DNA from: Smithellaceae bacterium
Lineage (GTDB): Bacteria > Desulfobacterota > Syntrophia > Syntrophales > Smithellaceae
Length of the DNA stretch: 64,000 nucleotides
NCBI GenBank assembly: GCA_963682015.1
Contig: OY820932.1
Span: 2,010,618-2,074,617, forward strand
Direction of reading: 5' to 3'
Shown here: positions 21,581 to 35,590 of the stretch, piece after piece
Layout of the letters: each line of letters begins with the position of its first letter
Numbering within the stretch: position 1 is the first letter of the stretch
The notes under the pieces: generated by a model
The model's input: only the letters and a program-made list of their open reading frames with translations
Databases searched by the model: none
Told to the model about the DNA's origin: nothing
Made by a program: the position numbers and the translations under genes

Positions 21581-22780
21581 ATGAAACGGATTGATTCAAT
21601 CGATGTGCTGCGCGCCCTGGCTATCATCTTTATGGTACTGTGCCATTTTCCGGTTAATTTATCCCCGGCCACCGGCGAATATCCATGGGTTTACTTCTTT
21701 TCGAATCACATTATCGGTGATTTTGCGGCATCCATGTTTTTGGTGCTTGTGGGTGTAAGCCAGGTTCTATCTTCCGGTAAAACCGGTCATGTTCCAATAG
21801 GCTTGCAGTTCTGGAAAGACCGCGCCATCAAACGGGGCGCGTTCATCTTCGTAGTCGGGTTGATTTTTTCAATGTCCGTGCGCGGGTGGGAAGCCGTTTT
21901 TGAATGGGACATCTTAACGCTCATCGGCGCGTCACTGATCGCCATCCGCCTGCTCGGCCGGCTGCCGGCATTCGGTTTTTTGATTGTTGGATTGATCTTT
22001 GTCCTTCCCTCGCCCCTCCTTCGCGAATACAGCCAGTATCTGCAGCACTGGGGCAACACGATGGAAGCGGTACCGGGAATCAGCAGCGTCGCACCGGGTC
22101 TTTTATATGACCCCGCCGCAGACTACCTCCCGACATGGAGTCTTCAGGAAATTGTCGAAGGGTTTTTCTTTGAGGGATATTTCCCGATTTTCCCGTGGCT
22201 GTTTTTCCCTCTTTTCGGCGTATTTTTAGGCAAAGCCAGTTTCGTGCAATCAGCCGAAGAATCTCCCAACACCAATCGTCACATTGTTTTCATGATATCC
22301 GGGGGAGCCGTTTTATCGGCAACTGCAATATTGATCGGCTTATGGGCGCGGACCAAGCCCCCTCTGTCCGTGGTCAATGAATATATCTCCCCCTTTTCAT
22401 TTTATCCTGTGACCATTTCCATGATGCTGCTGCAACTGGGAGTGGTTCTGCTTTTATTCGGCGTTTTGCGGGCGCTCTGTGATTACAGGCCCAGAGACAA
22501 CTGGTGGCTTGTTTATTGCCGCCGCTTGAGCCGCTATTCTTTAACGCTGTATGTATTGCACCATATCGTTATGCTCTGGCCTCTGTGGCTGATTGGAGGG
22601 ATCGCGGAAGGTCCATGGAATCAGTACTACGCGAAAGCGATGAGTGAACCGCTGGCTCTTATTTTAAGCATTCTTCTCATGGCCATATGCGGACCGCTGC
22701 TTGCCGCGTGGGATAAAGTAAAGGGAAAATACAGCCTGGAATGGAACCTGGCAAAAATAGTCGGAACAAGTTCCGGGTGA
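21581..22780 (+). CDS. DUF1624 / heparan-alpha-glucosaminide N-acetyltransferase-like integral membrane acyltransferase
   Basis: MKRIDSIDVLRALAIIFMVLCHF followed by about 10 predicted TM segments. Confidence 0.65.
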   Translation: MKRIDSIDVLRALAIIFMVLCHFPVNLSPATGEYPWVYFFSNHIIGDFAASMFLVLVGVSQVLSSGKTGHVPIGLQFWKDRAIKRGAFIFVVGLIFSMSVRGWEAVFEWDILTLIGASLIAIRLLGRLPAFGFLIVGLIFVLPSPLLREYSQYLQHWGNTMEAVPGISSVAPGLLYDPAADYLPTWSLQEIVEGFFFEGYFPIFPWLFFPLFGVFLGKASFVQSAEESPNTNRHIVFMISGGAVLSATAILIGLWARTKPPLSVVNEYISPFSFYPVTISMMLLQLGVVLLLFGVLRALCDYRPRDNWWLVYCRRLSRYSLTLYVLHHIVMLWPLWLIGGIAEGPWNQYYAKAMSEPLALILSILLMAICGPLLAAWDKVKGKYSLEWNLAKIVGTSSG

Positions 22781-22927
22781 AAGCACAAATTTCAAAAAGC
22801 GGAATAAACCGGGATTCTGCCCGACACAGTCGCGAAACATAAGTCCCCTCACCATTTTATTTAACCCGCAGGGAAACGGACATCCTTGTTCTCAATCCAT
22901 CCCGCTTGCCGCACAATGCTGAGCTTG

Positions 22928-24121
22928 CTATATGATGCCTTCCTTTTTCAGGGATTCCAGAGATTCCGTAGAGAGCCCCAGCCACTCTCTGTATACATCT
23001 TCGTTATGCTGACCCAAAAGTGGAGCCGGTTTGTATTCATAATCGTTCTTGTAAAGCCGGATCGGGCAGCCGGCCATTTTAAATTTGCCCCTTTGCGGGT
23101 GATCAAACTCGACTATGGTCTGCCGCTGATTGAAATGCGGATCGTTCAACACTTCCTTTGTATCCAGTACCGGCGCCGCGGGTATGCCAAGATCAGCCAT
23201 TGTCTTGAATACTTCCATTTTGTCTTTCGTCCTGGTCCAGTCCTCAATCGCGGCCTTGATATCTTGGTAGCGCTCGATGCGCAGATGGATGTCGTTTTTG
23301 AGCTCTTCCGTAGCCATGTCCGGACGGCCGATGGCCGTCATCGCCATTTCATACTGCTTGGGCGTGAGCATATTGATATAGGCATAGTCGTTCGGCCCGT
23401 CGCCCTTGCAGCGGACCACTTCCACAAAATCCCGTCGGGGTGAAGGTTCACCGTCGTCCAGAGGATGAATTGCCGTGGGCACACGATTCAGGTTAATCAC
23501 CGCATCCGCCATGGATTGTTCCACAACCTGTCCTTCACCGGTGCGGAGCCGTTGAATGTAGGCCGCCAGAATTCCCACGGCCAGATGCATACCCGCTCCC
23601 GTATCACCGATCGTCGGGCCGGGATTCAGAGGTGGTGTGTCCACCAGGCCGGTATTGCTGAACGCCCCGCCAATGGCTTTGGCAATGGAATCCATGGAAA
23701 GATAGTTGCTGTATGGCCCGCCTTTGCCAAATCCCACATTCTCGGCGTAAATAATCCGTGGATTAATTTTCGAAAGCACCTTGTAGTCGATGCCCATTCT
23801 GGTCATTACGCCGGGTGCGAAATTACTAACGACGACATCAGCTTTTTTAACCATGTCCTTGAATAAAGCAACTCCCCGGGGCGATTTCAGATTGAGCGTG
23901 ATTCCACGTTTATTGGCGTTGAGGGACAGAAAATACCAGGAATCCAATCCTTTTGTCCTGTCTACCTCCCGGATCATAAACGTCCTGCCCACTTCTCCTG
24001 TTCCCGGCGGCTCAATCTTGATAACATCCGCCCCGAGAAAAGCCAGCTGTTCCGTGCACGACGGCCCGGCTTCCCACTGGGATAAATCCAGTATCTTTAA
24101 TCCTTCAAGCGCTTTGGACAA
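22928..24121 (-). CDS. Family III CoA-transferase (CaiB/BaiF/Frc; FldA/HadA/BbsF-like)
   Basis: LEGLKILDLSQWEAGPSCTEQLAFLGADVIKIEPPGTGEVGR. TTG start 7 nt after AAGGAGG. Last gene of the operon. Confidence 0.85.
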   Translation of the reverse strand: MSKALEGLKILDLSQWEAGPSCTEQLAFLGADVIKIEPPGTGEVGRTFMIREVDRTKGLDSWYFLSLNANKRGITLNLKSPRGVALFKDMVKKADVVVSNFAPGVMTRMGIDYKVLSKINPRIIYAENVGFGKGGPYSNYLSMDSIAKAIGGAFSNTGLVDTPPLNPGPTIGDTGAGMHLAVGILAAYIQRLRTGEGQVVEQSMADAVINLNRVPTAIHPLDDGEPSPRRDFVEVVRCKGDGPNDYAYINMLTPKQYEMAMTAIGRPDMATEELKNDIHLRIERYQDIKAAIEDWTRTKDKMEVFKTMADLGIPAAPVLDTKEVLNDPHFNQRQTIVEFDHPQRGKFKMAGCPIRLYKNDYEYKPAPLLGQHNEDVYREWLGLSTESLESLKKEGII

Positions 24122-24181
24122 GGAAATCCTCCTTTGATGTCTTCACCCGCCATGACGTTAAACTGTCGTCATGACTTTTTT

Positions 24182-24967
24182 TCATTGTTCTTCTTCTGCC
24201 AGGCAGGCCGCGCCGAAAGCTGCGGTAAGCCTGGGGTGCTGCGGAACGAAAATCCTCAGACGCAACGCTAAGCCGATGGCTTCCACCAGCCCTTCGTCTT
24301 CTCCGCCGCCGCCGGTCAGCACGATATCCGGCTCCAGTTTCAATCGTTTAACCAGCATGGCCACCTTGGCGGCCATGGCCCTGTGGACGCCGGCCAGAAT
24401 GTCCGCGGGTTTTGCGCCTTCGGCAATCCGGGAGATGGTTTCCGACTCCGCGAAAACGGCGCAGTTCGTCGAAAATTCCACCGGTTTTTCCGACTGCATG
24501 GATAAAGGCCCGATTTCATCCAGCGGTACATTCAGAATCCGGGAAATCACCTGCAAAAAGCGGCCGGATCCGGTAGCGCACTTTTCGCTCATCAGGAAAT
24601 CGGCAATCCGTCCTTTGTCTGTGATCCGGGCGGCTTTGGTAAACTGGCCGCCAATGTCGATGAGTGTCCGGGTGGATGGGAAGAGGTTGTGGCAGCCTTT
24701 CGCATGGCAGGAAATGTCGGAGACCTGACGGCCGGAAAACGGGGAGCTTTGCGCGCCGAGGCCCGTAATCACCAGGCCCTCGATCTGTTCAAAAGCAAGG
24801 CCGGTCTGTCTGAGCACATCTTCCATGACCTTTGTGGCGCCGCCTTTATAATTGCCCCCGGAGGGAATCAGACTGGATGCTATCATCCGGCCTTCGCAGA
24901 CCAGGGCGGCCTTGATGGATACGGAACCCATGTCCAGACCGGCGTAATATTGATTTTGGTTGTTCAT
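24182..24967 (-). CDS. BcrAD/BadFG-family ATPase (benzoyl-CoA reductase A/D-type or dehydratase-activase-type), copy 2
   Basis: YAGLDMGSVSIKAAL (ASKHA phosphate-1). Cluster-ligand contexts SEKCATGSGRFLQ and STNCAVFAESE. VLTGGGG. Confidence 0.85.
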   Translation of the reverse strand: MNNQNQYYAGLDMGSVSIKAALVCEGRMIASSLIPSGGNYKGGATKVMEDVLRQTGLAFEQIEGLVITGLGAQSSPFSGRQVSDISCHAKGCHNLFPSTRTLIDIGGQFTKAARITDKGRIADFLMSEKCATGSGRFLQVISRILNVPLDEIGPLSMQSEKPVEFSTNCAVFAESETISRIAEGAKPADILAGVHRAMAAKVAMLVKRLKLEPDIVLTGGGGEDEGLVEAIGLALRLRIFVPQHPRLTAAFGAACLAEEEQ

Positions 24968-25073
24968 GACTTCCCCAATATTATTTCTCGCTCTTGCTTA
25001 ACCACGATGCAAGAGGACATGCCCCCTTTTTTTGTCCCCCGCTGGCGGGGGTGCAGGGGGTGGTACTCACTTA

Positions 25074-25114
25074 CCACCTCCGTCACTTCGTGACACCTCC
25101 GCCGGCGGAGGACA
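25074..25114. repeat. 41-nt dispersed repeat, copy 1 (CCACCTCCGTCACTTCGTGACACCTCCGCCGGCGGAGGACA)
   Basis: Identical except for 1 nt to 34915-34955. Contains GTCAC-ttc-GTGAC and the 16-nt palindrome CCTCCGCCGGCGGAGG. Preceded by another palindrome, CCCCCGC-tg-GCGGGGG. Confidence 0.85.
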
Positions 25115-25131
25115 CGATTACCGACGTTTCT

Positions 25132-25962
25132 TTATGCGAAGAAGGTGACGTCTTCTCTTTTGCGTTCCTTTGCCGGTCTTATTCCTCTGTCATAAAAGTC
25201 TTTGCCGATGAGCGCCGCACCCAGGGCGCCGGTGATAAAAGGTTCCGGTGGCGTCAGCACCGGAAAACCGACTTTCCCTTCGATGGCTTTGATCAGCCCG
25301 ATGTTCTTTGCACCGCCGCCGGTGACCACGACATCCTTTTCAATCCCCAGGTGCCGCGTCATGTTGACCACCCGGGCCGCGATCGCCTCATGCAATCCGG
25401 CGACAATCTCCGCCACGCCCGCACCTTCCGCCAGACGAGAGGTGACTTCGTGTTCCGCAAAGACCGTGCACATGTTGGAAATCTGGACGGAACCGCTCGC
25501 TTTAAGAGAAATGTCGCCCATGTCCGTGAGGTTGATGCCCAGCGTCTCCGAGATCACTTCCAGAAAACGTCCGGTGCCCGCGGCGCACTTGTCGTTCATG
25601 ACAAAATTGGCCACCTTGCCTTCGGCATCGAGCTTGATGCCCTTGGAATCCTGACCGCCGATGTCGATGATGATTTTTGCCGTGGGGAAAAGTGCCCGGA
25701 TACCGCGTGCGTGGCAGGTGATCTCCGTGATCTGCTTGTCGGCAAACGGCACATTGATCCTCCCGTAACCCGTGGCAACGATGAAATCCAGCGCTTCAAA
25801 AGAAAGCCCCGCCTTTTTGACGGTCTCGTCGGTTACCTTGAGCGCCAGGTGCCGGTGCTCCGCTCCGGTGGGTCCGATATGAGAAGCAATGATCTTTTCC
25901 TGTTCATCCGCGATGACCACCTTCGTCATCGTGGACCCGATATCTATTCCGCAAAACGGCAT
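25132..25962 (-). CDS. BcrAD/BadFG-family ATPase, copy 1
   Basis: FCGIDIGSTMTKVVI, NDKCAAGTGRFLE, SNMCTVFAEHE, VVTGGGAKN. Only loosely similar to the neighbouring copy, so this is not a recent duplicate. Confidence 0.85.
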   Translation of the reverse strand: MPFCGIDIGSTMTKVVIADEQEKIIASHIGPTGAEHRHLALKVTDETVKKAGLSFEALDFIVATGYGRINVPFADKQITEITCHARGIRALFPTAKIIIDIGGQDSKGIKLDAEGKVANFVMNDKCAAGTGRFLEVISETLGINLTDMGDISLKASGSVQISNMCTVFAEHEVTSRLAEGAGVAEIVAGLHEAIAARVVNMTRHLGIEKDVVVTGGGAKNIGLIKAIEGKVGFPVLTPPEPFITGALGAALIGKDFYDRGIRPAKERKREDVTFFA

Positions 25963-25982
25963 AAGTCGTATTTCCTCTGCTT

Positions 25983-26011
25983 GTAGGGAACGGTTTCAAA
26001 CCGTTCCCTAC
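25983..26011. repeat. 29-nt palindromic REP-like element GTAGGGAACGGTTTcAAACCGTTCCCTAC, copy 1
   Basis: 14-bp perfect arms. Copies 2 and 3 at 27525-27553 and 36559-36587. Confidence 0.85.
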
Positions 26012-26100
26012 GCTTTGGTTTTAAGGCTTTGCAAAACCAGTGGGGCATCCGGCATGCATCAGATGCCCTCATCCTTAAGGCTGGTCAAAACCGTCTGGAT

Positions 26101-26153
26101 GCAAGGCCCCCGAGTTCTGAGGCGTGAGGCGTACTTTTGTACGCCGCAGCAAC
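26101..26153. repeat. About 50-nt intergenic repeat module (GCAAGGCC...GGCGTGAGGCGTAC-tttt-GTACGCCGCAGCAAC), copy 1
   Basis: Shares GCAAGGCC and the GGCGTAC/GTACGCC hairpin core with 27601-27647. Confidence 0.7.
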
Positions 26154-26202
26154 GAAGGACGAGGGAAACGCAGCAGACGGGCGATTTTCACCAGCCGCCC
26201 TG

Positions 26203-27507
26203 CTATCTTGCTCGCGCCTGGAGCGCCTCAATAAACGCCCCGATCTGCGCCTTCCACTGCGCTTCCGAATAATCCCGCAGATCCACCATGTCGGAGACGA
26301 GCTGCATCATCGGCAGGTCCGAGTATTTGGAAAGCTCGTTTTTCATATGGATCTGTCCGACGGTGGTGGCCCGGCAGGAACGGCAGGCATGGAAAACCAC
26401 CCCGTCGATCTTGTAGTCGTCGATCATTCCCAGCAGTTTTTCCACAATGGGGTTGCCGCTACGTGCCCGGGCTTTCTCATGGTAGGCGGTGTAACGGAGA
26501 AAGGCCCGCCAGGCGAGATAATCCACCGGGTCCTTCACGTGCGAGGGCACTTCCACCGGGTCAAAACCCCGGTAGACGTTTTCAATGACAAACACCGCAC
26601 CGAAGCTTTCAAAATAATTGAAGATCCACAGCGTATGCCAGGGAGGAAGCCCTCCACCGTAGAGAACGCGGTACTTCTCATCGGCAATGACGCCGATCTT
26701 GTGATCCACCTTGTATTTTACTTCATCATAGAGCTTCTGGTAGAAATCGACAGCCACCTGTGTGCCGGAGTAGTAGTGCCCGGCCACCATGATGCTGAAG
26801 TGGTCCTGAGAAGGCATCGGACAGGGAACGGCCACTCTCAGCCGGTCGATGTCGTACCACAGCTGCCAGGCCTTATCGCCCAGGCGGATGCACTCCCAGA
26901 GTCTTTCCTTATCCATCTTCTTTCCGGTTTGTTTCTCCAAAAACTCAATTAATCCGGCAAGCTGGTCGCGCTGATATTTGATGTAGTAGTCTCGCACGGC
27001 GTTCAGATCATCCTGCGGGGGAGGATAGACCACGTCAATGCCGAACGTCGGGGCCTCCAGGTAGCGGCTGGTAGCCTGGTACCATTTGAAGCGCGGGTCG
27101 CACACGGCGGAGCTCCCCAGCATCATGTCGGGCATCGGCATGCCGCCGTCGGGGCTCCCGTCGGGTATCCGTCCCTGCTCTTTGCGCATACTGTCGAAAC
27201 CCAGGCCGATCCGGGCGTAGCTGCACAGTACCTGCGAGTAGCCGTCGGCTTCGGCTTTCAGCAGAAAGCGGTCCATCTCCCGTTTGGCGGCGCACAGTCC
27301 CGCGTAGTTTTCCGTGGGCAGCGGCACAACGTCCATCGCACGCAGGATTTCGTCATACTGCGAGGCGACCATCATGTAGGCCACTTTCTTCCCTTGCTCT
27401 CTCGCCAAATGCGCGCTCATGTAAATGTTCTTCACCAGCCCACGTACCTCCCGGGCGGTGTCCGTCCCTTTCACGGCCGTGGTCTTGGCCTGCTGCGTTG
27501 CTTCCAT
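26203..27507 (-). CDS. HGD-D family large subunit, BcrB/BadE/BzdO-like (alternatively HgdA/HadB/FldB-like)
   Basis: ATG at 27507 lies 8 nt after AAGGA (the track starts at TTG 27513). GMPMPDMMLGSSAVCDPRFKWY, EKYRVLYGGGLPPWH and the C-terminal LVSDMVDLRDYSEAQWK resemble my recollection of BCR B-type subunits. Confidence 0.7.
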   Translation of the reverse strand: MEATQQAKTTAVKGTDTAREVRGLVKNIYMSAHLAREQGKKVAYMMVASQYDEILRAMDVVPLPTENYAGLCAAKREMDRFLLKAEADGYSQVLCSYARIGLGFDSMRKEQGRIPDGSPDGGMPMPDMMLGSSAVCDPRFKWYQATSRYLEAPTFGIDVVYPPPQDDLNAVRDYYIKYQRDQLAGLIEFLEKQTGKKMDKERLWECIRLGDKAWQLWYDIDRLRVAVPCPMPSQDHFSIMVAGHYYSGTQVAVDFYQKLYDEVKYKVDHKIGVIADEKYRVLYGGGLPPWHTLWIFNYFESFGAVFVIENVYRGFDPVEVPSHVKDPVDYLAWRAFLRYTAYHEKARARSGNPIVEKLLGMIDDYKIDGVVFHACRSCRATTVGQIHMKNELSKYSDLPMMQLVSDMVDLRDYSEAQWKAQIGAFIEALQARAR

Positions 27508-27524
27508 ATTCAAAATCCTTTTCC

Positions 27525-27553
27525 GTAGGGAACGGTTTTAAACCGTTCCCTAC
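27525..27553. repeat. 29-nt palindromic REP-like element, copy 2 (GTAGGGAACGGTTTtAAACCGTTCCCTAC)
   Basis: Same arms as copy 1, central base differs. Lies 12 nt upstream of the B-like subunit start. Confidence 0.85.
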
Positions 27554-27600
27554 AATTATGTTCTTTTAGAGACTTTGTAAAAATCCCGGAGGCAAGGCGC

Positions 27601-27647
27601 GCAAGGCCGAAGGCGTGAGGCGTACTTTTGATGTACGCCGCAACAAC
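27601..27647. repeat. About 50-nt intergenic repeat module, copy 2
   Basis: GCAAGGCCGAAGGCGTGAGGCGTACTTTTGATGTACGCCGCAACAAC, matching 26101-26153. Confidence 0.7.
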
Positions 27648-27680
27648 TGAGGCCGCAGCGCAACGCCGCATACGGGGTTT

Positions 27681-28826
27681 TTACGGAGTCGAAATCATTT
27701 CCAGGAATGCCTGGATTCTGGTTCGTAATTGCCCGATCGTCGACGTCGAATAATCGTCCTCGATCATCAGCACCGGCAGCTTCAATCCATTGAGGTATTC
27801 TTTCAGATCCGGGCCCTCCAGTTCGCAGGTGTCGCAGTACCGAACGATGTAAAAGATCGCGCCGTTGGCCTTCCACCCGCTGATGAAGTCTTTCAGATAA
27901 CTGAAGCGGCTCTCCAGATCTTCTTTGCGGTTTCCTGCCTGCGGTTTGAGGCTTCTCGGGCAGTGGGTGCACAGGTAGCGCTCTGTCAGGCCGTCCAGGG
28001 GATCATCCGTCTCCGGAACGTCCTCCCAGAAAAAGCGGGTTCCCGTGCACAGGTCGTCCATCACGACGCGGGCGCCGCATTCCTCGACCAGTTGGATGAA
28101 GGCGATGTCGTCGATTTCATTGCCCCATAGAAAAATGCGTGGCAGGCCGTCCGGTTTGGACACAGGACGCTTTTTGATTTCAGCCAGAAGCGTTTCCAGA
28201 AGCTCGATATGTTCCACGGCGGTAATCCCCATGCCGGCGACCAGCACTTTGGTGATTTCCGTTCCCGATATGCGCGGCGGGTCTTCTTTGCGCAGTTCAT
28301 ACAGTTCCCGGAGCAGGGCGCGGCGCCGGTTGTACAGTTTTATGGCTTCTTTCAGTTTCCCCACATCCAGCTTTTTGCCGGAGAATTCCTCCAGGCGGGA
28401 AATGAAATACTGCAATTCGTTTTTGTAAAACGCATCGGAGGACGGTCCCATCATGTGCGGTACGTTGATCATGTGATTGAAGGGCGACGGTTTGTTGCTG
28501 CGCCAGATGTAGTACAGGCGCTCAATGGTGTCGCAGCTGTGCGGGGCGACAAACCCGTCCAGGAAGTCGTATTCGCCTTTCAGCGCCATGTTGAAGCAAC
28601 TTCGGGCAAAGGGGCAGGCCATCGGTTCCAGCAAAGCGTCCGCCTCGTCAATCGGGTCGCTCTGGCTCCCCTGGATACGGTAGGGAATCATATCGAATGC
28701 CGTGATAATCTCGTCCGGGACAAAACAACAAAAATATCCGATAACTTTTTTGCCCGCGCTATGCAGATCCCTTGCCCGCTTTCCTCTGTTTGTATAAATC
28801 TCATTAAACTTTTCGATGACCGTCAT
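27681..28826 (-). CDS. HGD-D family small subunit, BcrC/BadD/BzdN-like (alternatively HgdB/HadC/FldC-like)
   Basis: KKVIGYFCCFVPDEII...PHSCDT...DDLCTGTR...RYCDTCELE...IEDDYSTSTIGQLRTRIQAFLEMI. GGAAGAGAGG precedes the ATG. Confidence 0.8.
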   Translation of the reverse strand: MTVIEKFNEIYTNRGKRARDLHSAGKKVIGYFCCFVPDEIITAFDMIPYRIQGSQSDPIDEADALLEPMACPFARSCFNMALKGEYDFLDGFVAPHSCDTIERLYYIWRSNKPSPFNHMINVPHMMGPSSDAFYKNELQYFISRLEEFSGKKLDVGKLKEAIKLYNRRRALLRELYELRKEDPPRISGTEITKVLVAGMGITAVEHIELLETLLAEIKKRPVSKPDGLPRIFLWGNEIDDIAFIQLVEECGARVVMDDLCTGTRFFWEDVPETDDPLDGLTERYLCTHCPRSLKPQAGNRKEDLESRFSYLKDFISGWKANGAIFYIVRYCDTCELEGPDLKEYLNGLKLPVLMIEDDYSTSTIGQLRTRIQAFLEMISTP

Positions 28827-28922
28827 GTGACCTCTCTTCCGTTTGCAATTTCTTTGTCAGGACAATAAGTACTATTTCATCAAAAAAATATAACTACAGG
28901 CTGGAGCCATTGTTTTAAAATT

Positions 28923-28961
28923 CAGGAGGCCAGGCCTCTAAATGCATCGCCGGGCCTCCTG
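28923..28961 (-). terminator. Hairpin CAGGAGGCC-N21-GGCCTCCTG after the binding-protein gene (possible internal attenuator/terminator)
   Basis: 9-bp stem, followed on the minus strand by AATTTTAAAAC. Located between the SBP stop and the C-like subunit start. Confidence 0.35.
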
Positions 28962-28980
28962 CATCATCGAGAATGATCGT

Positions 28981-30474
28981 TTATTCACCCCAGCCGTTTT
29001 TGCCCTTGCAGCGATCCAGTTTCGGATCCATCCAGGGGAGAACTTTCTCCGCGGAAAGGGTATAAATCTTAACAGGGTGAGAGGCATCTTTAAACCAGTA
29101 ATACGGTGGAATCGTATACGTCGCTTTTTGTTCCGCCGGCGGTCCATATACTTCAGCGGAAAGATCCTGAATCGCCTTGTGGTCGCAAGCCCTCATCTTG
29201 ATAACCTTGCCATTGGCCTGACGATAAGTGTCGCCTTCCCATAATTCGATGATCTTTTCGGCATTCGCGGTCTTGGCCCGTTCCATCAGACTGAGCAGCC
29301 AGTAAGTCTGCATCGACCAGCCTCCGCCGACACTGTGTACGCCGTGTTCGAAGGAAACACCATTGTACGGCGCGGTTTTAAATTTCTTCCACTGGTTATG
29401 ATACGTCGTATAGAGTTTTGTGAATCCGGGAGCCGCGCTGAAAGGAACCGGTGAGTGATAGGGACCTACATGAACCCAGTCTTTCCCGCCGTTGGGGCCC
29501 AGATCCTGCAGCATGGAAGCCGTTGTCATCCAGATATTCGCATAAGGCAGGTTAATTCCCGCCTGCTGAGCCTGTTTGGCCAGGGCCGCCGCGTCAGGCA
29601 CCCAGTCACCCGTGAAAATGACTTCAGCCTCGGAAGCCTTGATCTTGGAAAGATAGGGCGCGAAATCGGTCAAAAAGAGTTTATGGTAATCTTCGCCGAC
29701 GATCTGCGCTTCCGGGTAATATTCCTTCAAGCCCTTTTTGAATCCCTCGGCAAAAATCCGGCCAAAGCCGTAATCCTGACAGAGGATATAAAATTTCTTT
29801 TCCTTTTTACGAATCTGTCCATAGTAATAGGCAAGTCCGCGGGCAACCTGATCGCAGGAAAATCCTCCATGGAAAGAATAGCGGCCGAAATTATCCGCAT
29901 CCTGGATGTCATCGGATGTATTGCTGGCATTGAGGGCGATGACCTTGTGCTGGTTGGCGACCTGATTAATAATTTTCATGATATGGCTGCCGTCGCAGCC
30001 CCAGAGAATATTGGCCTTTTCCTGAAGGATCATTCTCTCCGCCACTTTCTTGGTCTGGTCCGCTCTTCCCTGCGTGTCGCCTTTAATGACCTCAATGAGT
30101 TTCTTTTTACCGTCAACCCAGATACCGCCGCGTTTGTTGATATCGTGGGCGACCCAGGTGACGGTAGACCAGTAAAACTGGCCGTTGATCTGTGAGGGGC
30201 CGGAGAAGGAAGCAATAATCGCAATTTTGATCGTGTCCCCCGTGGGGCTTACCCAGGTACCCGGATCATAGTCCGACATGTCACCCATTTTGCTTGCATC
30301 AAAGGCCGCGTTGGCCTTGCCCAGTTTGTCCGGCGGTTCCGCTTTTGATTCCTTTGTCGCCTTGGTCGCTTTTTTCGCGGCCATGACCGTCGAAGGACTG
30401 TAGGCCATCAGTGATAAAGCGATAAGAGCCAGCAGCATTACAAAAAAAGTTTTTCCCATCCACTTCATTTTCAT
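28981..30474 (-). CDS. Periplasmic ABC-type substrate-binding protein, LivK/Peripla_BP_6 family (orphan: no permease or ATPase genes nearby)
   Basis: ATG at 30474 follows AAAGGAGGAG. Signal peptide MKMKWMGKTFFVMLLALIALSLMAYS. An alternative ATG at 30570 would overlap the ligase stop (ATGA). Confidence 0.75.
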   Translation of the reverse strand: MKMKWMGKTFFVMLLALIALSLMAYSPSTVMAAKKATKATKESKAEPPDKLGKANAAFDASKMGDMSDYDPGTWVSPTGDTIKIAIIASFSGPSQINGQFYWSTVTWVAHDINKRGGIWVDGKKKLIEVIKGDTQGRADQTKKVAERMILQEKANILWGCDGSHIMKIINQVANQHKVIALNASNTSDDIQDADNFGRYSFHGGFSCDQVARGLAYYYGQIRKKEKKFYILCQDYGFGRIFAEGFKKGLKEYYPEAQIVGEDYHKLFLTDFAPYLSKIKASEAEVIFTGDWVPDAAALAKQAQQAGINLPYANIWMTTASMLQDLGPNGGKDWVHVGPYHSPVPFSAAPGFTKLYTTYHNQWKKFKTAPYNGVSFEHGVHSVGGGWSMQTYWLLSLMERAKTANAEKIIELWEGDTYRQANGKVIKMRACDHKAIQDLSAEVYGPPAEQKATYTIPPYYWFKDASHPVKIYTLSAEKVLPWMDPKLDRCKGKNGWGE

Positions 30475-30566
30475 ACTCCTCCTTTTAAATTTCATTACCC
30501 CTGTAACGTTTTGCAATCTGTGATCCGACGTGAACAAACGCGGAAGCGATACCCACAAAGCTCGCT

Positions 30567-32267
30567 TCATTTTCCTCCCGTGTATTTTCCCGCCGCCCGG
30601 AGTTTTTCAATTTCCTCCTTTTCCAGTTCCGTATAGGCAATCTTGCCAACTTTTGTCAGAGGCAGACTATCCCGGAATTCCACTTCGCGCGGACAGGACC
30701 ATTTGATGAGATGTTTCTGGCAATGAGCAATCAGTTCCTGAGCCAGTTCGGGACTTGCCTTGGATTCGTCTTTGAGAACAACGACGGCTTTGACTCTTTC
30801 CACCTGAGCTTCATCGGGAACTCCGATCACGCAGGCCGCCTGCACAGCGGGATGCTTGTCCAGAACGGCCTCCACCTGCACGGGGTAAACATTCATTCCC
30901 GAAGATTTGATCATTCGTTTGAGCCGCAGCTTGAAGTAAAAATAACCGTCCGCATCCATGGTGAAAATATCTCCCGTGTGCAGCCAGATTCGTCCGTCGT
31001 CATGCTTTTTCAGAACCGCTGCCGTTTCCTCGGGTTGTTCCAGATAACCCAGCATCACCGCCGGCCCGCTTACGCACAGTTCGCCTTCCTGACCGACAGG
31101 AACCTCCTGTATTGTTCCGATGCCCACGACTTTAGCCAGCATGTCCGAAAAAGGGATTCCCACGCTCCCTTCACGATACCCGTCGAGTGGCGTGGACATG
31201 ATCCCGGTTACGGCTTCCGTCAGGCCATATCCCTCGACCAGTTGCACATTGCCTCCCTGCCGTTTCACTAGCTCCTCAAACCGGTCTTTGACCTGCCGGG
31301 GCAGCGAATCCGCTCCACAGGATGTTGTTTTGAGACAACTCAAATCCGCTGTCTGGAAATCCGGATTCCGCGTCAGGGCGTCGTAGAGAGTGGGGACACC
31401 GGTGATGAGGGTCGGCTTTTTCTTCTTGATGAGATCCACGACAATCTCCGGCGTAAACTGGGGAACGAGAATGCTCTTGGCGCCCCCCATGAAAGCCGCG
31501 TTGCAGCAGATTCCGAGACCGAAGCCGTGAAAGATGGGCAGAATTGCGAGCACGGAGGCATCTTCCGTCTCCAGACCTTCACCCCAGTTGGCCACCATCA
31601 AGCCTTCGCTGATGAAGTTATAGTTGGAGAGCATAATGCCTTTGGGGAACCCCGTGGTCCCGCCGCTGTACAGGATAACGGCCATTTCATCGGTTCCCAT
31701 ATCCGCCTTGGGCGCTTCGGGATGAGGAGCCGCCATCAGCGCTTTCCAGTATTTGACCATCGGATCGCCATGGATTTTATCGGCGTCCTGATCGCGGGGA
31801 GTCATCTGATCGAAAATACCGGTCAGGATGATCGTTTCCAGCTTGGTTTGATTTTTGACTTCTTTGAATTTGTCATAAAAAATGTCCAGCGTCAGAGCGA
31901 CGCGACTTTTACTGACATTGAGATAATAAATAATTTCCTGCGCTGTGGAGAGGGGATGAATCATGCTGGCGACAATGCCCAGTTTATTCGCTGCGTAAAA
32001 GCAGATGATCCCCTGAGGCGAAGTGGGCATAGAGATGGTGATCCGGTCTCCCTTTTTCATGCCGATTGCGGCCAGTGCGTTGGCGCAGATATCGATGTCC
32101 CGTCCGAATTGCCTGTACGTGGACGTATAGTCAAAAAAGTCGTAGGCAATCCGATCGGGATAACGCTCGACTGTCTGCATCAGAGCCTCATACATGGTCA
32201 CCCGTGGATAATCGATCGTTTCCGGCACTTTGTTGTAGAATTGCAACCAGGGCTTTTGTTTATACAT
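30567..32267 (-). CDS. AMP-forming acyl/aryl-CoA ligase
   Basis: ATG at 32267 follows AAGGA. ILYSGGTTGFPKGIMLS, EGYGLTE, TGD....D.DGYF....R.K..IK..G.NV.P. Confidence 0.85.
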   Translation of the reverse strand: MYKQKPWLQFYNKVPETIDYPRVTMYEALMQTVERYPDRIAYDFFDYTSTYRQFGRDIDICANALAAIGMKKGDRITISMPTSPQGIICFYAANKLGIVASMIHPLSTAQEIIYYLNVSKSRVALTLDIFYDKFKEVKNQTKLETIILTGIFDQMTPRDQDADKIHGDPMVKYWKALMAAPHPEAPKADMGTDEMAVILYSGGTTGFPKGIMLSNYNFISEGLMVANWGEGLETEDASVLAILPIFHGFGLGICCNAAFMGGAKSILVPQFTPEIVVDLIKKKKPTLITGVPTLYDALTRNPDFQTADLSCLKTTSCGADSLPRQVKDRFEELVKRQGGNVQLVEGYGLTEAVTGIMSTPLDGYREGSVGIPFSDMLAKVVGIGTIQEVPVGQEGELCVSGPAVMLGYLEQPEETAAVLKKHDDGRIWLHTGDIFTMDADGYFYFKLRLKRMIKSSGMNVYPVQVEAVLDKHPAVQAACVIGVPDEAQVERVKAVVVLKDESKASPELAQELIAHCQKHLIKWSCPREVEFRDSLPLTKVGKIAYTELEKEEIEKLRAAGKYTGGK

Positions 32268-32340
32268 GATCCTTATTCCTTTCCGGTTAATGTTGAGAAA
32301 TGCAGTTTTCTTTGACTTCAACTTTTTCTTTTCTCCATTT

Positions 32341-32356
32341 TGCAATTTTAAAGCCA
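32341..32356 (-). promoter_or_regulatory. Sigma-54 (-24/-12) promoter TGGCTT-TAAAA-TTGCA for the ligase operon
   Basis: On the minus strand, GG and GC are separated by exactly 10 nt. About 75-90 nt upstream of the ligase ATG. A divergent sigma-54 EBP gene lies next door. Confidence 0.6.
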
Positions 32357-32418
32357 ATTGTCCATGTAATTAATATAATTGAACATATATTAACATAATT
32401 CCTTTCGGCATTATTATT

Positions 32419-32435
32419 CGTTGCATATTGCAACG
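32419..32435. promoter_or_regulatory. Palindrome CGTTGCA-tat-TGCAACG, candidate upstream activator site for the EBP
   Basis: 7-3-7 perfect inverted repeat, about 65-80 nt upstream of the -24 element in the divergent spacer. Confidence 0.45.
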
Positions 32436-32479
32436 GGTCCTTATATAGAAATCGGAACGCAAAGGTTAAAGGTGGAACA

Positions 32480-33889
32480 ATGGATCTGATTAAAAAATAT
32501 CTCGGGGACATTGACGTTTTACTCGACTGCATTGACGAGGCCATTCTCATTGTGGATCACCAGGGAAACATCTTAAAGTACAATGAAACTTTCAGAAATC
32601 TGACGGATACCAGAGGTGAATGGAGTGTCGGCAGAAATTTGAAAGACATCGTCGCCAGCGGACTTTTGAAAGAGTCAGCGGCATTGAAATCGCTGGAAGT
32701 GAAAAAGAAAATGGATATGAACCTTACGTATGAAACCGGGCAGACGGCCACTTGGACATATATTCCCGTCTTCGACGAAAAAGGAAATCTGGTTTTGACC
32801 GTGGGCACCGGACGGGACATTACAAAACTGGTAACTCTGGAGAAAAGACTGAAGCAATCGGAAATTATTATTTCCCAGTATGAAGAGAAAAAATACCTGC
32901 TGGAAGGAAATTTCGGAAGCGGCGAAATTGTATTTTCCAGCAATAAAATGCAGCAGGTCTTGCGCATGGCCTGGAAAGTCTCGGCAAGTTCCTCGCCCGT
33001 CCTGGTCTGGGGAGAAACCGGCGTGGGGAAGGAGCTTGTGGCCGAATACATTCATCAAAGCAGCGACCGCAACCAGAAGCCGTTTATCGCCATTAACTGC
33101 GCGACGATCCCGGATGAACTTCTGGAAGCCGAGTTGTTCGGCTATGAAGAAGGTTCCTTTACCGGCGCCAAGAAAACCGGCAAAAGGGGCCTCCTGGAGG
33201 ACGCCCATGAAGGAACTCTTTTTTTGGATGAAATCGGCGAACTCCCGCTGAAAATGCAGAGCAAATTATTGCGCTTTCTTCAGGAAGGGACTTTCAAGAG
33301 GATCGGCAGCAGCAAGGTCCGTAAAGTCGATGTCCGGATTCTCAGCGCCACGAATCTTTCCGAAAACCAGCTGATGAGCAGCAGTCATTTCCGGCAGGAT
33401 CTTTTCTATCGAATCGGCGTCATGCTGATCTATGTTCCTCCGCTGAGGGAGAGAAAAGAGGACATTTATCCGCTCATCAGAAATTTCGTTCAGCAATTCA
33501 ATACAAAATATCAGACCAATATCATGATTCCCCCGAGAATCATGAATCAACTCTACAATTATGACTGGCCGGGAAATATTCGGGAATTAAAAAACGTTAT
33601 CGAGCGGATCGCCATTCTGTATGGGTACAAGGAACTAACCGAAGAGGACATTGAACTGGTTATGCACAGCAAGCACCAGGATAACCCGGCTGAGCAGACT
33701 GATCTTCCTTCCGGACTTTCCCGTACATTGCCGTCGTCGCTGAAATCAGCCAGGCAAAAGCTTGATGAAAATCTGATCCGGCAAACCTACAAAGCAACGG
33801 GCAGCATCATCAAGACGGCAAGAGCTCTGGGCATCAATCCGTCGACGATTCACAGGAAGATCAAAAAGGGCATTCTCCAGATTGCTTAA
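32480..33889 (+). CDS. Sigma-54-dependent transcriptional activator (PAS sensor, AAA+ domain, Fis-type HTH)
   Basis: PAS-like N-terminus (ILIVDHQGNILKYNE), Walker A GETGVGKE, GSFTGA loop, ELFGYE, WPGNIRELKNVIER, C-terminal HTH ARALGINPSTIHRKI. Confidence 0.9.
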   Translation: MDLIKKYLGDIDVLLDCIDEAILIVDHQGNILKYNETFRNLTDTRGEWSVGRNLKDIVASGLLKESAALKSLEVKKKMDMNLTYETGQTATWTYIPVFDEKGNLVLTVGTGRDITKLVTLEKRLKQSEIIISQYEEKKYLLEGNFGSGEIVFSSNKMQQVLRMAWKVSASSSPVLVWGETGVGKELVAEYIHQSSDRNQKPFIAINCATIPDELLEAELFGYEEGSFTGAKKTGKRGLLEDAHEGTLFLDEIGELPLKMQSKLLRFLQEGTFKRIGSSKVRKVDVRILSATNLSENQLMSSSHFRQDLFYRIGVMLIYVPPLRERKEDIYPLIRNFVQQFNTKYQTNIMIPPRIMNQLYNYDWPGNIRELKNVIERIAILYGYKELTEEDIELVMHSKHQDNPAEQTDLPSGLSRTLPSSLKSARQKLDENLIRQTYKATGSIIKTARALGINPSTIHRKIKKGILQIA

Positions 33890-33913
33890 TCCTATGCGGT
33901 CAAGGATGCTCGC

Positions 33914-33949
33914 ATTGCAAAATGCATCAGCAGATATTGCAAAATGCAT
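33914..33949. repeat. Two 14-nt direct repeats ATTGCAAAATGCAT spaced 22 nt start-to-start
   Basis: 33914-33927 and 33936-33949, between the EBP stop and the DUF1848 start. They share ATTGCAAAATG with the -12 region of the sigma-54 promoter. Confidence 0.6.
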
Positions 33950-33987
33950 TGAGTAAATTATTGGGCTCAGCACAGGTGAAAATTGTC

Positions 33988-34863
33988 ATGATCATCAGTT
34001 GCAGCCGGCGGACGGACATTCCCGCGTTTTACAGTGACTGGCTTATAAACCGGATTCGCGAGGGCAATGTGCAGGTGCGCAATCCGATGAATGCCCGGCA
34101 GGTAAGAAGGGTTTCGCTTGCCCCTGCCGACGTTGACATCATCGTTTTCTGGACAAAAGATCCGTCGCCCATGCTGGATAAACTGCGTATGCTCAACGAC
34201 TATCTATTTTACTTCCAGTTCACGCTGACGCCTTACGATAAGGAGATTGAGCCTCATCTTCCGCCGAAAGCTCAAATCACCGATACGTTTCTGCGGCTGT
34301 CCGATCGAATCGGGGCCCAAAGAGTGGTCTGGCGCTATGATCCCATTCTTTTCACGGATCATATCACGGTCGATTACCACATCGATCATTATGGAGAAAT
34401 GGCAAGGCGACTGGCCGGGCACACTGAAAAATGCGTCATCAGCTTCATCGACATGTACCGGCATATTCAAAAACGGATGGCCGGCCAGTCAGTCAGACAG
34501 CCCGGCGAGCCGGAAACGCGAGCCCTTGCACAGGGCATTTCGCGTATTGCTGGAAGCGTCGGCATCATCATGGAAACCTGTGCGGAGAAAATCGATCTTT
34601 CCGATGCGGGAATCGGGCACGGGAAGTGCGTTGATGACCGGCTGATTTCCGAATTAACCGGAACAGAGGTGCCTACGGTCAAAGACAGGTACCAGCGGGA
34701 GCTTTGCGGATGCGCGGCCAGCGTCGATATCGGCGAATACAATACCTGCGGGCACCTTTGCAATTACTGCTACGCGAATGTAAGCCGCAGAAAAATCGAT
34801 AAAAACCGGTTGCTGCACAATGATCAATCCCCGTTGCTGATTGGAGAGATCGATGAACGATAA
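33988..34863 (+). CDS. DUF1848 domain protein
   Basis: MIISCSRRTDIPAFYSDWL..R...G.V.V.NP.N...V..V.L....VD.IVFWTK, with a C-terminal Cys cluster CGCAASVDIGEYNTCGHLCNYCYA. Confidence 0.7.
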   Translation: MIISCSRRTDIPAFYSDWLINRIREGNVQVRNPMNARQVRRVSLAPADVDIIVFWTKDPSPMLDKLRMLNDYLFYFQFTLTPYDKEIEPHLPPKAQITDTFLRLSDRIGAQRVVWRYDPILFTDHITVDYHIDHYGEMARRLAGHTEKCVISFIDMYRHIQKRMAGQSVRQPGEPETRALAQGISRIAGSVGIIMETCAEKIDLSDAGIGHGKCVDDRLISELTGTEVPTVKDRYQRELCGCAASVDIGEYNTCGHLCNYCYANVSRRKIDKNRLLHNDQSPLLIGEIDER

Positions 34864-34914
34864 AAAGGATATGAAACCGCTTTGGACTTTGCTACAAACA
34901 GTTCCTGTAATCAA

Positions 34915-34955
34915 CCACCTGCGTCACTTCGTGACACCTCCGCCGGCGGAGGACA
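34915..34955. repeat. 41-nt dispersed repeat, copy 2
   Basis: CCACCTGCGTCACTTCGTGACACCTCCGCCGGCGGAGGACA. One mismatch relative to 25074-25114. Confidence 0.85.
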
Positions 34956-34972
34956 TGTAAAGGAACACGATT

Positions 34973-35572
34973 ATGCAAATCTCAATCATTCTGGCGCACC
35001 CTGATCCCGCAAGCTTTAATCACGCCATCGCGCGGACAGCGCTGGAGACGGTTCGGGAAAACGGGCATACGGTCTTCTTCCACGATCTCTACCGGGAAAA
35101 ATTCGACCCGCTGCTTCCCGCGCAAGAGGTTGCCCGTAACGCAGCCCTGCCCGCTTCCCTTCGGCAACACTGCGATGAGATCACCGTGGCGGACGGCATT
35201 ATCATTGTACATCCAAACTGGTGGGGGCAGCCCCCGGCCATTCTCAAGGGCTGGGTGGATCGCGTGATCCGCCCCGGCGTGGCGTATGAATTTCTGGAAG
35301 GCGATTCGGGGGAGGGTGTTCCCCGCGGACTCCTCAAAGCCAGGACAGTGGTTGTTTACAATACATCCAATACCGAATCGGAAAGAGAAAACAGTGCCTT
35401 CGGTGATCCGCTGGAAACCATCTGGAGGAACTGCGTCTTCGGGCTCTGTGGCATTACCGGTTTTCACCGCCGGATGTTTAACGTTGTGGTCACCAGTACG
35501 GAAGATCAGCGCAAAAAATGGCTTGACGAAGTCGGACAAGAGGTTGATATGTTTTGGGGGAAGATCAAATAA
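34973..35572 (+). CDS. NAD(P)H dehydrogenase (quinone)-like flavodoxin-fold protein (Flavodoxin_2 family)
   Basis: MQISIILAHPDPASFNHAI...IIVHPNWWGQPPAILKGWVDRV. Confidence 0.75.
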   Translation: MQISIILAHPDPASFNHAIARTALETVRENGHTVFFHDLYREKFDPLLPAQEVARNAALPASLRQHCDEITVADGIIIVHPNWWGQPPAILKGWVDRVIRPGVAYEFLEGDSGEGVPRGLLKARTVVVYNTSNTESERENSAFGDPLETIWRNCVFGLCGITGFHRRMFNVVVTSTEDQRKKWLDEVGQEVDMFWGKIK

Positions 35573-35590
35573 TTTTTCAGGACGGAACAT

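Follow-up and report, generated by a model that had tools for sequence, protein, structure and literature searches.

Does the locus at positions 22928 to 33889 of a 64,000-nucleotide (nt) stretch of Smithellaceae bacterium contig OY820932.1 encode a reductase or a dehydratase of coenzyme A (CoA) esters? In this stretch, here called the window and used for all coordinates below, the first-pass annotation had described an acyl-CoA ligase, a solute-binding protein, a small and a large HGD-D subunit, two ATPases, and a family III CoA-transferase, in that order, with a divergent activator gene. Open reading frame (ORF) reading and Pfam searches recovered all of these genes where they had been placed, with small corrections to some start codons, as seven minus-strand genes within 22928-32267 and an activator gene on the plus strand. 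The four genes for the HGD-D subunits and the ATPases (the core) define a well-delimited and abundant clade that is often misannotated and that mixes reductase and dehydratase traits; the superfamily and its chemistry are already known, and the family is not categorically new. We tentatively read the enzyme as an ATP-primed ketyl-radical catalyst of the (R)-2-hydroxyacyl-CoA dehydratase type with a heterodimeric activator and a double-cubane-type electron store, an assignment that falls a little short of probable.

Conservation of the core genes

A scan of species-representative genomes returned 66 loci (L numbers below), nearly all of them in metagenome-assembled genomes (MAGs) of Smithellaceae, Syntrophaceae, and other Thermodesulfobacteriota. 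The order small subunit, large subunit, ATPase 1, ATPase 2 was kept in about 55 of the 66, at 61 to 92% identity, and the synteny seen in the window is thus shared across relatives. Because the four genes have the same order in some 55 independent loci, the arrangement lies far beyond chance. Searches with the small subunit gave thousands of relatives, the best 120 of which were 75 to 96% identical. Several MAGs carried two copies of the core, and one small subunit (P0001) was 96% identical to that of the window; probably, the source genome itself carries a second, near-identical core.

The family stood apart from the characterized enzymes. A HMMER search with the large subunit against 1.84 billion representatives yielded 214 clusters at E < 1e-30, and the best 150 all outscored the level of BzdO and HadB. 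In the neighbor-joining tree of the large subunit, the family was monophyletic, approximately 100 representative clusters (clustered at 50% identity) joined it before BzdO, and BzdO joined before HadB. All trees were neighbor-joining trees that used a small set of PDB-derived fragments of BzdNO, HadBCI, MbdNOPQ, HgdC, and the double-cubane cluster protein (DCCP), rebuilt from HMMER alignments, as references and left out BcrABCD, Bad, BzdPQ, HgdAB, LcdAB, FldBC, and tetrahydronaphthoyl-CoA reductase. The ten nearest representative clusters had generic names or none, and no core subunit reached any NCBIfam equivalog cutoff. The small subunit scored 236 bits against double_cubane (cutoff, 350), 198 against BzdN (454), 178 against HadC (700), and 154 against BcrC (421), and the large subunit scored 160 bits against HadB (750), 153 against BzdO (449), and 103 against BcrB (487). 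These results bear out the earlier description of an uncharacterized four-gene enzyme, here a member of the benzoyl-CoA reductase (BCR)/2-hydroxyacyl-CoA dehydratase (HAD) superfamily. The family nests in no characterized clade, and a literature search found no paper characterizing the four-gene family. The superfamily holds many uncharacterized members (PMC7317905).

Predicted cluster ligands and active-site residues of the HGD-D subunits

The large, presumably catalytic subunit (434 amino acids [aa]; 26203-27507, minus strand, ATG at 27507; Pfam HGD-D, E = 3e-58) was 31% identical to BzdO, 26% to MbdO, and 25% to HadB, and the small subunit (381 aa; 27681-28826, minus strand; Pfam HGD-D, E = 3e-95) was 33% identical to BzdN and 30% to HadC. 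Matches among PDB sequences ranked BzdN and BzdO first, followed by HadC and HadB and then by MbdN and MbdO. Cysteines C97, C138, and C380 of the large subunit were invariant and aligned with Cys95, Cys128, and Cys380 of BzdO and with the HadB ligands. The large subunit also kept E68, the equivalent of BzdO Glu65, and Y99, the equivalent of the thioester-binding Tyr97.

Other positions of the active site differed. Arg141 replaced BzdO His131 and was invariant in 17 of 17 family members, at a position that is hydrophobic in HadB; the resulting C-D-x-R motif was also found in three of the relatives outside the family (L069, L071, and L072). BzdO Gln274 was replaced by Leu (Ile in HadB), Leu383 was replaced by Thr, and Trp46 was not kept. 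His131 of BzdO has been proposed as a proton relay in the Birch-type reduction (PMC11971306). Only the Glu of the Glu65/His131 pair was retained in the large subunit; in the alignment MbdO had no His there either, and the catalytic His131 may be specific to the Bzd type.

In the small subunit, C33, C71, C98, C260, C289, and C331 were invariant and fell in six columns that are Cys in both BzdN and DCCP, while HadC lacked two of the six and MbdN lacked three. Equivalents of BzdN Arg53 and Arg267 were also kept. By this pattern, the small subunit would bear an [8Fe-9S] double-cubane-type site.

These residues bear on the main alternative, a stable complex like the class I BCRs that would spend ATP stoichiometrically to place two low-potential electrons onto a CoA ester made by the ligase and the transferase. 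Its substrate could be a substituted aromatic, a partly reduced bicyclic, an alicyclic, or another hard-to-reduce unsaturated acyl-CoA. The six-Cys signature with both arginines, the rank of BzdN and BzdO as top PDB matches, and the point at which BzdO joins the tree all speak for such a reductase, which we nevertheless consider rather unlikely. The replacement of His131 by Arg and the loss of Trp46, Gln274, and Leu383 count against it, as do the NCBIfam BCR equivalogs, which were missed by a wide span for BzdN (198 versus 454 bits), BzdO (153 versus 449 bits), and the ATPase model BzdQ (188 versus 380 bits).

One canonical and one divergent ATPase

ATPase 1 (276 aa; 25132-25962, minus strand; Pfam BcrAD_BadFG, E = 6e-61) and ATPase 2 (261 aa; 24182-24967, minus strand; E = 2e-50) were 40% identical to each other, and for both the best PDB matches were HadI and then MbdQ. 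ATPase 1 was 43 to 45% identical to HadI (45%), MbdQ (44%), HgdC, and the DCCP activase (45%), and its motifs were canonical (DIGST, TGYGR, DIGGQD, NDKCAAGTGRF, and CTVFAE). ATPase 2 kept both cluster cysteines, but its clade consistently read DIGGQF where ATPase 1 has DIGGQD and TGLGA where ATPase 1 has TGYGR; this GGQF recalls the GGQT of the divergent MbdP. The Cys contexts reported at first reading were exact (NDKCAAGTGRF and SNMCTVFAE in ATPase 1; SEKCATGSGRF and STNCAVFAE in ATPase 2). ATPase 2 was 61 to 81% identical within the family, and its own conserved clade confirms that it is clearly different from ATPase 1 and no decayed duplicate.

In the tree, the two ATPases formed separate clades with 98 to 100% bootstrap support, and each clade took in one ATPase of L069, a Dehalococcoidia locus, at 99 to 100%. 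Because each clade includes one Dehalococcoidia ATPase, the duplication is old and predates the split from the Dehalococcoidia relatives. A sister relationship of the two clades had 22% support, and the clades had no firm placement relative to MbdQ, HadI, and HgdC in a tree from which BcrA, BcrD, BzdP, and BzdQ were absent. Neither ATPase grouped with MbdP, the sole BCR P-type subunit compared. The pair looks like an asymmetric heterodimer of the kind found in class I reductases, and the nucleotide-site motifs of ATPase 2 diverge as those of MbdP do, which would suit a reductase. However, the tree with MbdP and MbdQ gave no evidence that this pair shares its origin with the class I pair, and the lack of grouping with MbdP counts against the reductase.

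ATPase 1 carries a tail of approximately 20 residues ending in ..R(K/R)xE.VTFF(A/K/S) (25132-25200), which is also present in L001, L033, L055, and L069 and is absent from the aligned HadI, HgdC, MbdQ, and MbdP. The tail could be a docking peptide for a stable complex.

Relatives outside the family

The nearest outgroups (L069 to L072) came from environmental metagenome contigs and from Dehalococcoidia and Bacillota MAGs and had large subunits 40 to 51% identical to that of the window. All four had a six-Cys small subunit. The closest, L071 (large subunit, 51%), combined, in this order, a family III CoA-transferase, the small and large subunits, a VorB-like 2-oxoacid:ferredoxin oxidoreductase subunit (398 bits; cutoff, 399), and a D-2-hydroxyacid dehydrogenase, a set that reads as a textbook 2-hydroxy-acid route. 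L069 (49%) had a ligase, a family III transferase, and both ATPase types; L072 (48%) was flanked by a four-subunit 2-oxoacid oxidoreductase; and L070 (40%) had one ATPase, a family I CoA-transferase, a short-chain dehydrogenase/reductase (SDR), and an enoyl-CoA hydratase. Such neighbors are hallmarks of 2-hydroxy-acid fermentation routes. The context in the relatives thus points to 2-hydroxy-acid chemistry and not to aromatic-ring reduction, and the LarA-like and Lut genes, acyl-CoA dehydrogenases, and enoate-reductase-like genes found within the family (see below) point the same way.

The outgroups changed the weight of several arguments. We rejected the six-Cys signature as a marker of reductases, because relatives with dehydratase-type neighbors (L070 and L071) have it as well. 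The presence of two ATPases, which the first-pass annotation had counted as a class I reductase signature, proved unreliable, since relatives at 40 to 51% identity include a one-ATPase system with classic dehydratase neighbors. For the reductase, it is a further difficulty that the six cysteines occur in relatives with a plain 2-hydroxy-acid dehydratase context and that enzymes of 2-oxo and 2-hydroxy acids accompany the nearest outgroups. The original, open verdict of a reductase or dehydratase acting on an aromatic, alicyclic, or 2-hydroxy acid stands, but we lean toward the dehydratase.

Contexts of the core within the family

There were at least three types of context around the core. In the ligase type, an orthologous ligase (66 to 87% identical) immediately preceded the core in at least 10 loci, with companions that varied among a sigma-54 activator, a binding protein, a CoA-transferase, a 600-aa acyl-CoA dehydrogenase, major facilitator superfamily (MFS) or TRAP transporters, and a divergent operon with enoate-reductase-like, AbfD-like, and thiolase genes. 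The MFS/M20 type was a tight Smithellaceae clade without the ligase in which an MFS anion transporter and an M20 amidohydrolase followed the core. In the third type, an old yellow enzyme (OYE)/BaiCD-like flavoenzyme lay directly upstream, and an SDR and LutA usually lay downstream, to which some loci added LutB. Of the 63 loci for which contexts were counted, 18 had a ligase, 13 had an MFS transporter, 9 had an OYE flavoenzyme, 6 had LutA, 5 had an acyl-CoA dehydrogenase, and 5 had a family III transferase. The enoate-reductase/BaiCD-like flavoenzyme was on the core strand in 7 of its 9 loci and directly upstream of the core in five (L032, L033, L039, L043, and L044). LutA and LutB followed on the core strand in L034, L035, and L043, a LarA-like 2-hydroxy-acid racemase was on the core strand in L034 and L035, and L035 also had a LUD-domain (LutC-like) gene. 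The cluster of L001 included an acyl-CoA dehydrogenase whose best, though weak, score was against the acryloyl-CoA reductase AcrC.

Part of this variation would suit a reductase. In five loci, an OYE-type flavoenzyme gene immediately precedes the core, which invites a pathway analogy with the naphthoyl-CoA reductase cascade, and the constancy of the core amid changing neighbors would agree with a hub enzyme. On the other side, a search of the L035 neighbors with NCBIfam models reached no Dch, Had, or Oah model (Had, 102 versus 339 bits) and found only generic beta-oxidation enzymes, and neither these three genes nor a ferredoxin gene was found in the window locus or among the L035 neighbors searched. 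The absence of ferredoxin, dienoyl-CoA hydratase, and ring-cleavage genes from the locus had been noted at the outset and was upheld.

The core of the window was closest (80 to 92%) to MFS/M20-type cores, although its own context is of the ligase type. Together with the 96% identical paralogue, this mismatch suggests exchange between paralogues.

An uncultured Syntrophaceae MAG showed a different arrangement (L041, 10001-13700), in which the small and large subunits led straight to a CoA-transferase orthologue (79%) without intervening ATPase genes; a complete four-gene core was present elsewhere in this MAG (L028). One ATPase pair may serve two catalytic pairs in this organism.

The Lut- and LarA-containing loci also bear on a second alternative, in which the enzyme would run in the hydration direction of an oxidative route from acyl-CoA through enoyl-CoA and (R)-2-hydroxyacyl-CoA to the 2-hydroxy acid and the 2-oxo acid, in effect the acrylate/lactate-type pathway run backward on propionate or other short fatty acids. 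We regard this direction as improbable. It draws on L035, whose one-strand set of ligase, acyl-CoA dehydrogenase-like, core, LutA, LutB, LUD-domain, and LarA-like genes covers every step, on the AcrC-like score of the L001 dehydrogenase, and on the concentration of the family in Smithellaceae, where the enzymes of the propionate pathway are unknown. However, Lut, LarA, and acyl-CoA dehydrogenase genes are all absent from the window locus, the same genes fit the ordinary reductive acrylate pathway equally, and the ligase is nearer to medium- and long-chain and aromatic acid ligases than to propionate ligases. In addition, the oxidation of propionyl-CoA to acrylyl-CoA is thermodynamically very unfavorable for a hydrogen-producing syntroph. 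A 'lactate pathway' of propionate oxidation is treated as speculative in a review (PMC8892533).

The broader form of this idea, equally a long shot, is that an enzyme with BCR architecture (four subunits, asymmetric ATPases, and a double-cubane store) interconverts 2-hydroxyacyl-CoA and enoyl-CoA and that this reaction is pivotal to an acrylate/lactate-type route of Smithellaceae and related syntrophs. The route would then comprise the ligase, the acyl-CoA dehydrogenase, the four-gene enzyme, the CoA-transferase, LarA, and LutABC. If this were true, a dehydratase with BCR architecture would form an evolutionary bridge between dehydratases and aryl-CoA reductases and would also fill the enzyme gap in the still speculative 'lactate pathway' by which syntrophs would oxidize short-chain fatty acids.

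A role in the six-carbon propionate dismutation pathway of Smithella was also considered and dropped. The rearrangement in that pathway needs a carbon-skeleton mutase, which is not the chemistry of the four-gene enzyme.

Proposed mechanism

From sequence and gene context, we infer the cluster types, complex formation, reaction, direction, and substrate of the dehydratase-type reading as follows. The locus would be a sigma-54-induced catabolic module for an imported carboxylic acid, which the periplasmic binding protein would capture. The AMP-forming ligase would make the first CoA ester, and the family III CoA-transferase would then recycle CoA at no extra ATP cost. In the large subunit, three cysteines would hold a [4Fe-4S] cluster in which one iron site is left open, with Glu68, Tyr99, and Arg141 on its flanks, and the six cysteines of the small subunit would match the [8Fe-9S] double-cubane site of BzdN and DCCP. 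The canonical and the divergent ASKHA ATPase would form a heterodimer sharing one [4Fe-4S] cluster, and ATP hydrolysis would drive the transfer of a low-potential electron, supplied by ferredoxin or flavodoxin, to the catalytic pair. The likeliest reaction would be ketyl-radical dehydration of an (R)-2-hydroxyacyl-CoA to a 2-enoyl-CoA, with the electron recycled and ATP needed for priming only; the enoyl-CoA could then pass to beta-oxidation or be reduced.

We lean toward a dehydratase because the three-Cys/Glu/Tyr framework is shared with HadB and BzdO, the outgroups have a 2-hydroxy-acid context, Arg141 and Leu replace the BzdO residues, and Dch, Had, Oah, and ferredoxin genes were not found in the window locus or among the L035 neighbors searched. 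Energy-limited syntrophic hosts could presumably better afford catalytic than stoichiometric use of ATP, a cost that would burden a reductase in obligate syntrophs.

Several observations weigh against this reading. Two distinct ATPases are strictly conserved, one of them divergent as in BCR (MbdP-like GGQx), and the gene order is that of Bzd and Bcr (small-large-ATPase-ATPase, as in BzdNOPQ and BcrCBAD), which are also the strongest points for a reductase; to our knowledge, all characterized dehydratases have one homodimeric activator. In the PDB searches, BzdN and BzdO outscored HadC and HadB by a small margin for both HGD-D subunits, and the six-Cys double-cubane signature has been demonstrated so far only in reductases (BzdN and DCCP). 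Genes for a 2-hydroxy-acid dehydrogenase, a racemase, or an enoyl reductase are absent from the window itself, and a conserved core with a variable periphery is what a central hub reductase would also show.

Peripheral genes of the window locus

The first gene of the locus encodes the AMP-forming acyl-CoA ligase (566 aa; 30567-32267, minus strand, with the true ATG at 32267; Pfam AMP-binding, E = 4e-82). Its closest solved structures were feruloyl-, 4-coumarate-, and fatty-acyl-CoA ligases, and it reached no NCBIfam cutoff. The secreted LivK-type (Peripla_BP_6) solute-binding protein (28981-30474, minus strand; Pfam E = 1e-45) likely starts at 30474 with MKMKWMGKTFF..., and the signal peptide MKMKWMGKTFFVMLLALIALSLMAYSPSTVMA was read from its sequence. 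Its matches to solved binding proteins were weak, and orthologues 73 to 79% identical were found in L001 and L047. Pfam found no Liv-type permease or ATPase beside it in the window locus, in agreement with its earlier description as an orphan. The last gene encodes the family III CoA-transferase (397 aa; 22928-24121, minus strand, TTG start with a strong ribosome-binding site; Pfam CoA_transf_3, E = 3e-98), whose nearest matches were the YfdW/Frc formyl-CoA transferases (280 bits), followed by SUGCT, and which stayed below the NCBIfam cutoffs. Orthologues accompanied the core in few loci only, such as L001 (84% identical) and L041.

Ligase and transferase are both present, as had been noted. 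Their pairing, which had been taken as an odd mix, is less odd than it seemed, as the Clostridium sporogenes fld cluster also pairs a ligase with a family III transferase. We considered a dicarboxylate substrate (e.g., 2-hydroxyglutarate) on account of the Frc/SUGCT-like transferase and Arg141 and found it unsupported; the L071 transferase scores similarly against Frc yet adjoins the VorB-like, branched-chain 2-oxoacid oxidoreductase.

Promoter, regulator, and intergenic spacers

The activator gene (469 aa; 32480-33889, plus strand) encodes a PAS/Sigma54_activat/HTH_8 enhancer-binding protein (Pfam Sigma54_activat, E = 1e-66, with PAS_9 and HTH_8). A sigma-54 -24/-12 element, TGGCTTTAAAATTGCA, with GG-N10-GC spacing lies 5' of the ligase gene (32341-32356, minus strand). 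Three related loci (L037, L047, and L051) also have a divergent activator; its orthologues there were 65 to 79% identical and divergent to the ligase, and TGGC-N7-TTGC stood at the position equivalent to the element in the window. A palindrome, GTTGCAATATGCAAC (32420-32434, minus strand), was read as a candidate upstream activator-binding site, and in L037 and L047 the form (G/A)TTGCAAYATGCAAC was kept approximately 70 nt 5' of the -24/-12 element; L051 has Ns there. Because the -24/-12 element recurs in all three loci and the palindrome in two, the sigma-54 control proposed at first reading is well supported as a prediction, and the activator would presumably bind at the palindrome.

The core genes in the window are separated by strongly structured spacers of 150 to 240 nt, whereas the gaps in related loci are often only 10 to 25 nt or the genes overlap. 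The spacer between the large subunit and ATPase 1 (folding z = -6.6 compared with shuffled controls) contains a repetitive extragenic palindrome (REP)-like sequence, GTAGGGAACGGTTTnAAACCGTTCCCTAC, with perfect 14-nt arms at 25983-26011, and a second copy, also with perfect 14-nt arms, lies at 27525-27553 in the spacer between the small and large subunits (folding z = -4.7). Both palindromes sit just 5' of the ribosome-binding site of the next gene, and a hairpin resembling a terminator occurs on the coding strand of one spacer. Given the long structured spacers and this hairpin, a single transcript across the seven genes is plausible but not assured.

A 57-nt repeat (26097-26153 and 27588-27644) accompanies the REP-like palindrome, and a third, imperfect copy of the palindrome with three mismatches lies at 36559-36587. 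The palindrome core GGGAACGGTTnnAAACCGTTCCC was also found in equivalent spacers of two Smithellaceae MAGs (L009, 11445-11467, 11699-11721, and 13058-13080; L013, 11468-11490 and 11743-11765). An Rfam scan of 22500-37000 gave no match.

Could the locus then be a chance juxtaposition or a decaying remnant, with, for example, a nonfunctional duplicated ATPase and genes that are not expressed together? The structured spacers with their palindromes, the terminator-like hairpin, and the loss of the GGQD and TGYGR motifs in ATPase 2 could be taken that way. All ORFs, however, were intact, with good Pfam scores across their full length; the same four genes occur in the same order in about 55 loci at 61 to 92% identity, often closely spaced or overlapping; ATPase 2 forms a conserved clade older than the Dehalococcoidia split; and the promoter and the activator are conserved. 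We therefore find a remnant barely credible.

Other genes in the window

Beside the third palindrome copy lies a gene for a 500-aa AbfD/HpaB-family protein (36642-38144, minus strand) with CX3C (C96-C100) and HX6C (H285-C292) motifs, which we take to match the [4Fe-4S] ligands of 4-hydroxybutyryl-CoA dehydratase. Orthologues 84 to 85% identical occur in a divergent OYE-AbfD-thiolase operon beside ligase-MFS-core clusters in L050 and L052, an arrangement that hints at a functional link between two types of radical dehydratase. Approximately 25 kb from the locus, a gene like the alpha subunit of 2-oxoacid:ferredoxin oxidoreductases lies ahead of two further ORFs at 58211-60912 (plus strand); its product was 33% identical to the VorB-like subunit of L071.

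Just past the CoA-transferase gene lies a membrane acyltransferase gene (Acyl_transf_3/HGSNAT_cat; 21560-22780, plus strand), and a second acyl-CoA synthetase gene (19237-21069, minus strand) passes the NCBIfam PRK08279 cutoff for long-chain-acyl-CoA synthetases (725 versus 625 bits). Both are probably unrelated to the operon. On the other side, a DUF1848 gene (33922-34863, plus strand; E = 1e-104) starts 33 nt 3' of the activator gene on the same strand, and a cluster related to cobamide salvage and transport occupies 43588-50660 (minus strand), with CobS, DBI_PRT (CobT-like), Peripla_BP_2, a TonB-dependent receptor, an ABC ATPase, and a FecCD permease.

Annotation of the family and its consequences

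Members of the family carry conflicting names. JGI annotations call many of them 'bzd-type benzoyl-CoA reductase N subunit' or 'benzoyl-CoA reductase subunit C,' and NCBI uses '2-hydroxyacyl-CoA dehydratase family protein.' In a coal-seam study, aromatic degradation in a Syntrophaceae MAG was inferred from Prokka bcr calls, while BlastKOALA found none (PMC10936416). Should the family prove not to be a benzoyl-CoA reductase, it would be unsafe to infer aromatic degradation in this way for the Smithellaceae and Syntrophaceae of digesters, aquifers, coal seams, and peat. The core abounds in uncultured syntrophs, whose substrate range is poorly known, and some of their genomes have two copies.

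The family joins traits that are held to separate two classes, namely, two ATPases and the six-Cys signature of reductases on one side and a 2-hydroxy-acid context with a non-BCR active site on the other. Its characterization would tell whether the double cubane and the heterodimeric ATPase are tied to stoichiometric reduction or are just one design of activator and electron store.

Comparison with known systems

DCCP and its activase (6ENO and 7YYL; PMC7317905) share with the window the six-Cys motif in an HGD-D fold and an ASKHA activase, and double_cubane is the top model for the small subunit, although its 236 bits fall short of the cutoff of 350. DCCP, however, consists of two copies of a single HGD-D protein, its activase is likewise a homodimer, and CoA-ester partner genes are lacking. 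In the window, the partner of the six-Cys subunit is a three-Cys catalytic subunit, an arrangement also seen in BzdNO.

The 3-methylbenzoyl-CoA reductase MbdONQP (9G87 and 9GAI) is also a four-subunit system, and it combines the canonical MbdQ with the divergent MbdP, whose GGQT compares with the GGQF of ATPase 2. It differs in that MbdN lacks three of the six cysteines, the large subunit and MbdO share only 26% identity, and MbdP stays outside the ATPase 2 clade.

The class I benzoyl-CoA reductase BzdNOPQ (BzdNO structure, 8S02; PMC11971306) has the same order of small HGD-D, large HGD-D, and two ATPase genes. BzdN and BzdO are the best PDB matches of the two subunits, which keep the six cysteines and the Arg53 and Arg267 equivalents (small) and the three cysteines and the Glu65 and Tyr97 equivalents (large). 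In contrast, identity is only 31 to 33%, the BzdN, BzdO, and BzdQ cutoffs are far off, Arg141 stands for His131, and Trp46, Gln274, and Leu383 are not kept. Moreover, ferredoxin, Dch, Had, and Oah genes are not nearby, and the window ATPases do not group with the P-type subunit of the related Mbd enzyme.

The (R)-2-hydroxyisocaproyl-CoA dehydratase system HadBC/HadI/HadA (3O3M and 4EHT) resembles the window in its two HGD-D subunits, in the three-Cys open-site cluster with Glu and Tyr of the large subunit, in an ATPase of the HgdC/HadI type, in a family III CoA-transferase in the operon, and in a hydrophobic residue at the position of BzdO Gln274. The window differs by two unlike ATPase genes, where Had has one, by the six-Cys small subunit, by Arg141, and by the lack of a 2-hydroxy-acid dehydrogenase and of an Etf/acyl-CoA dehydrogenase; its subunits are 25 to 30% identical to HadB and HadC, and the NCBIfam scores are far below the cutoffs (HadB, 160 versus 750 bits).

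The relatives outside the family (L069 to L072), themselves uncharacterized, share the six-Cys small subunit with the window. L071 departs from it in having a VorB-like oxidoreductase and a D-2-hydroxyacid dehydrogenase, and L070 departs from it in having one ATPase, a family I CoA-transferase, and an enoyl-CoA hydratase. L069 resembles the window in carrying a ligase, a family III transferase, and the two ATPase paralogues.

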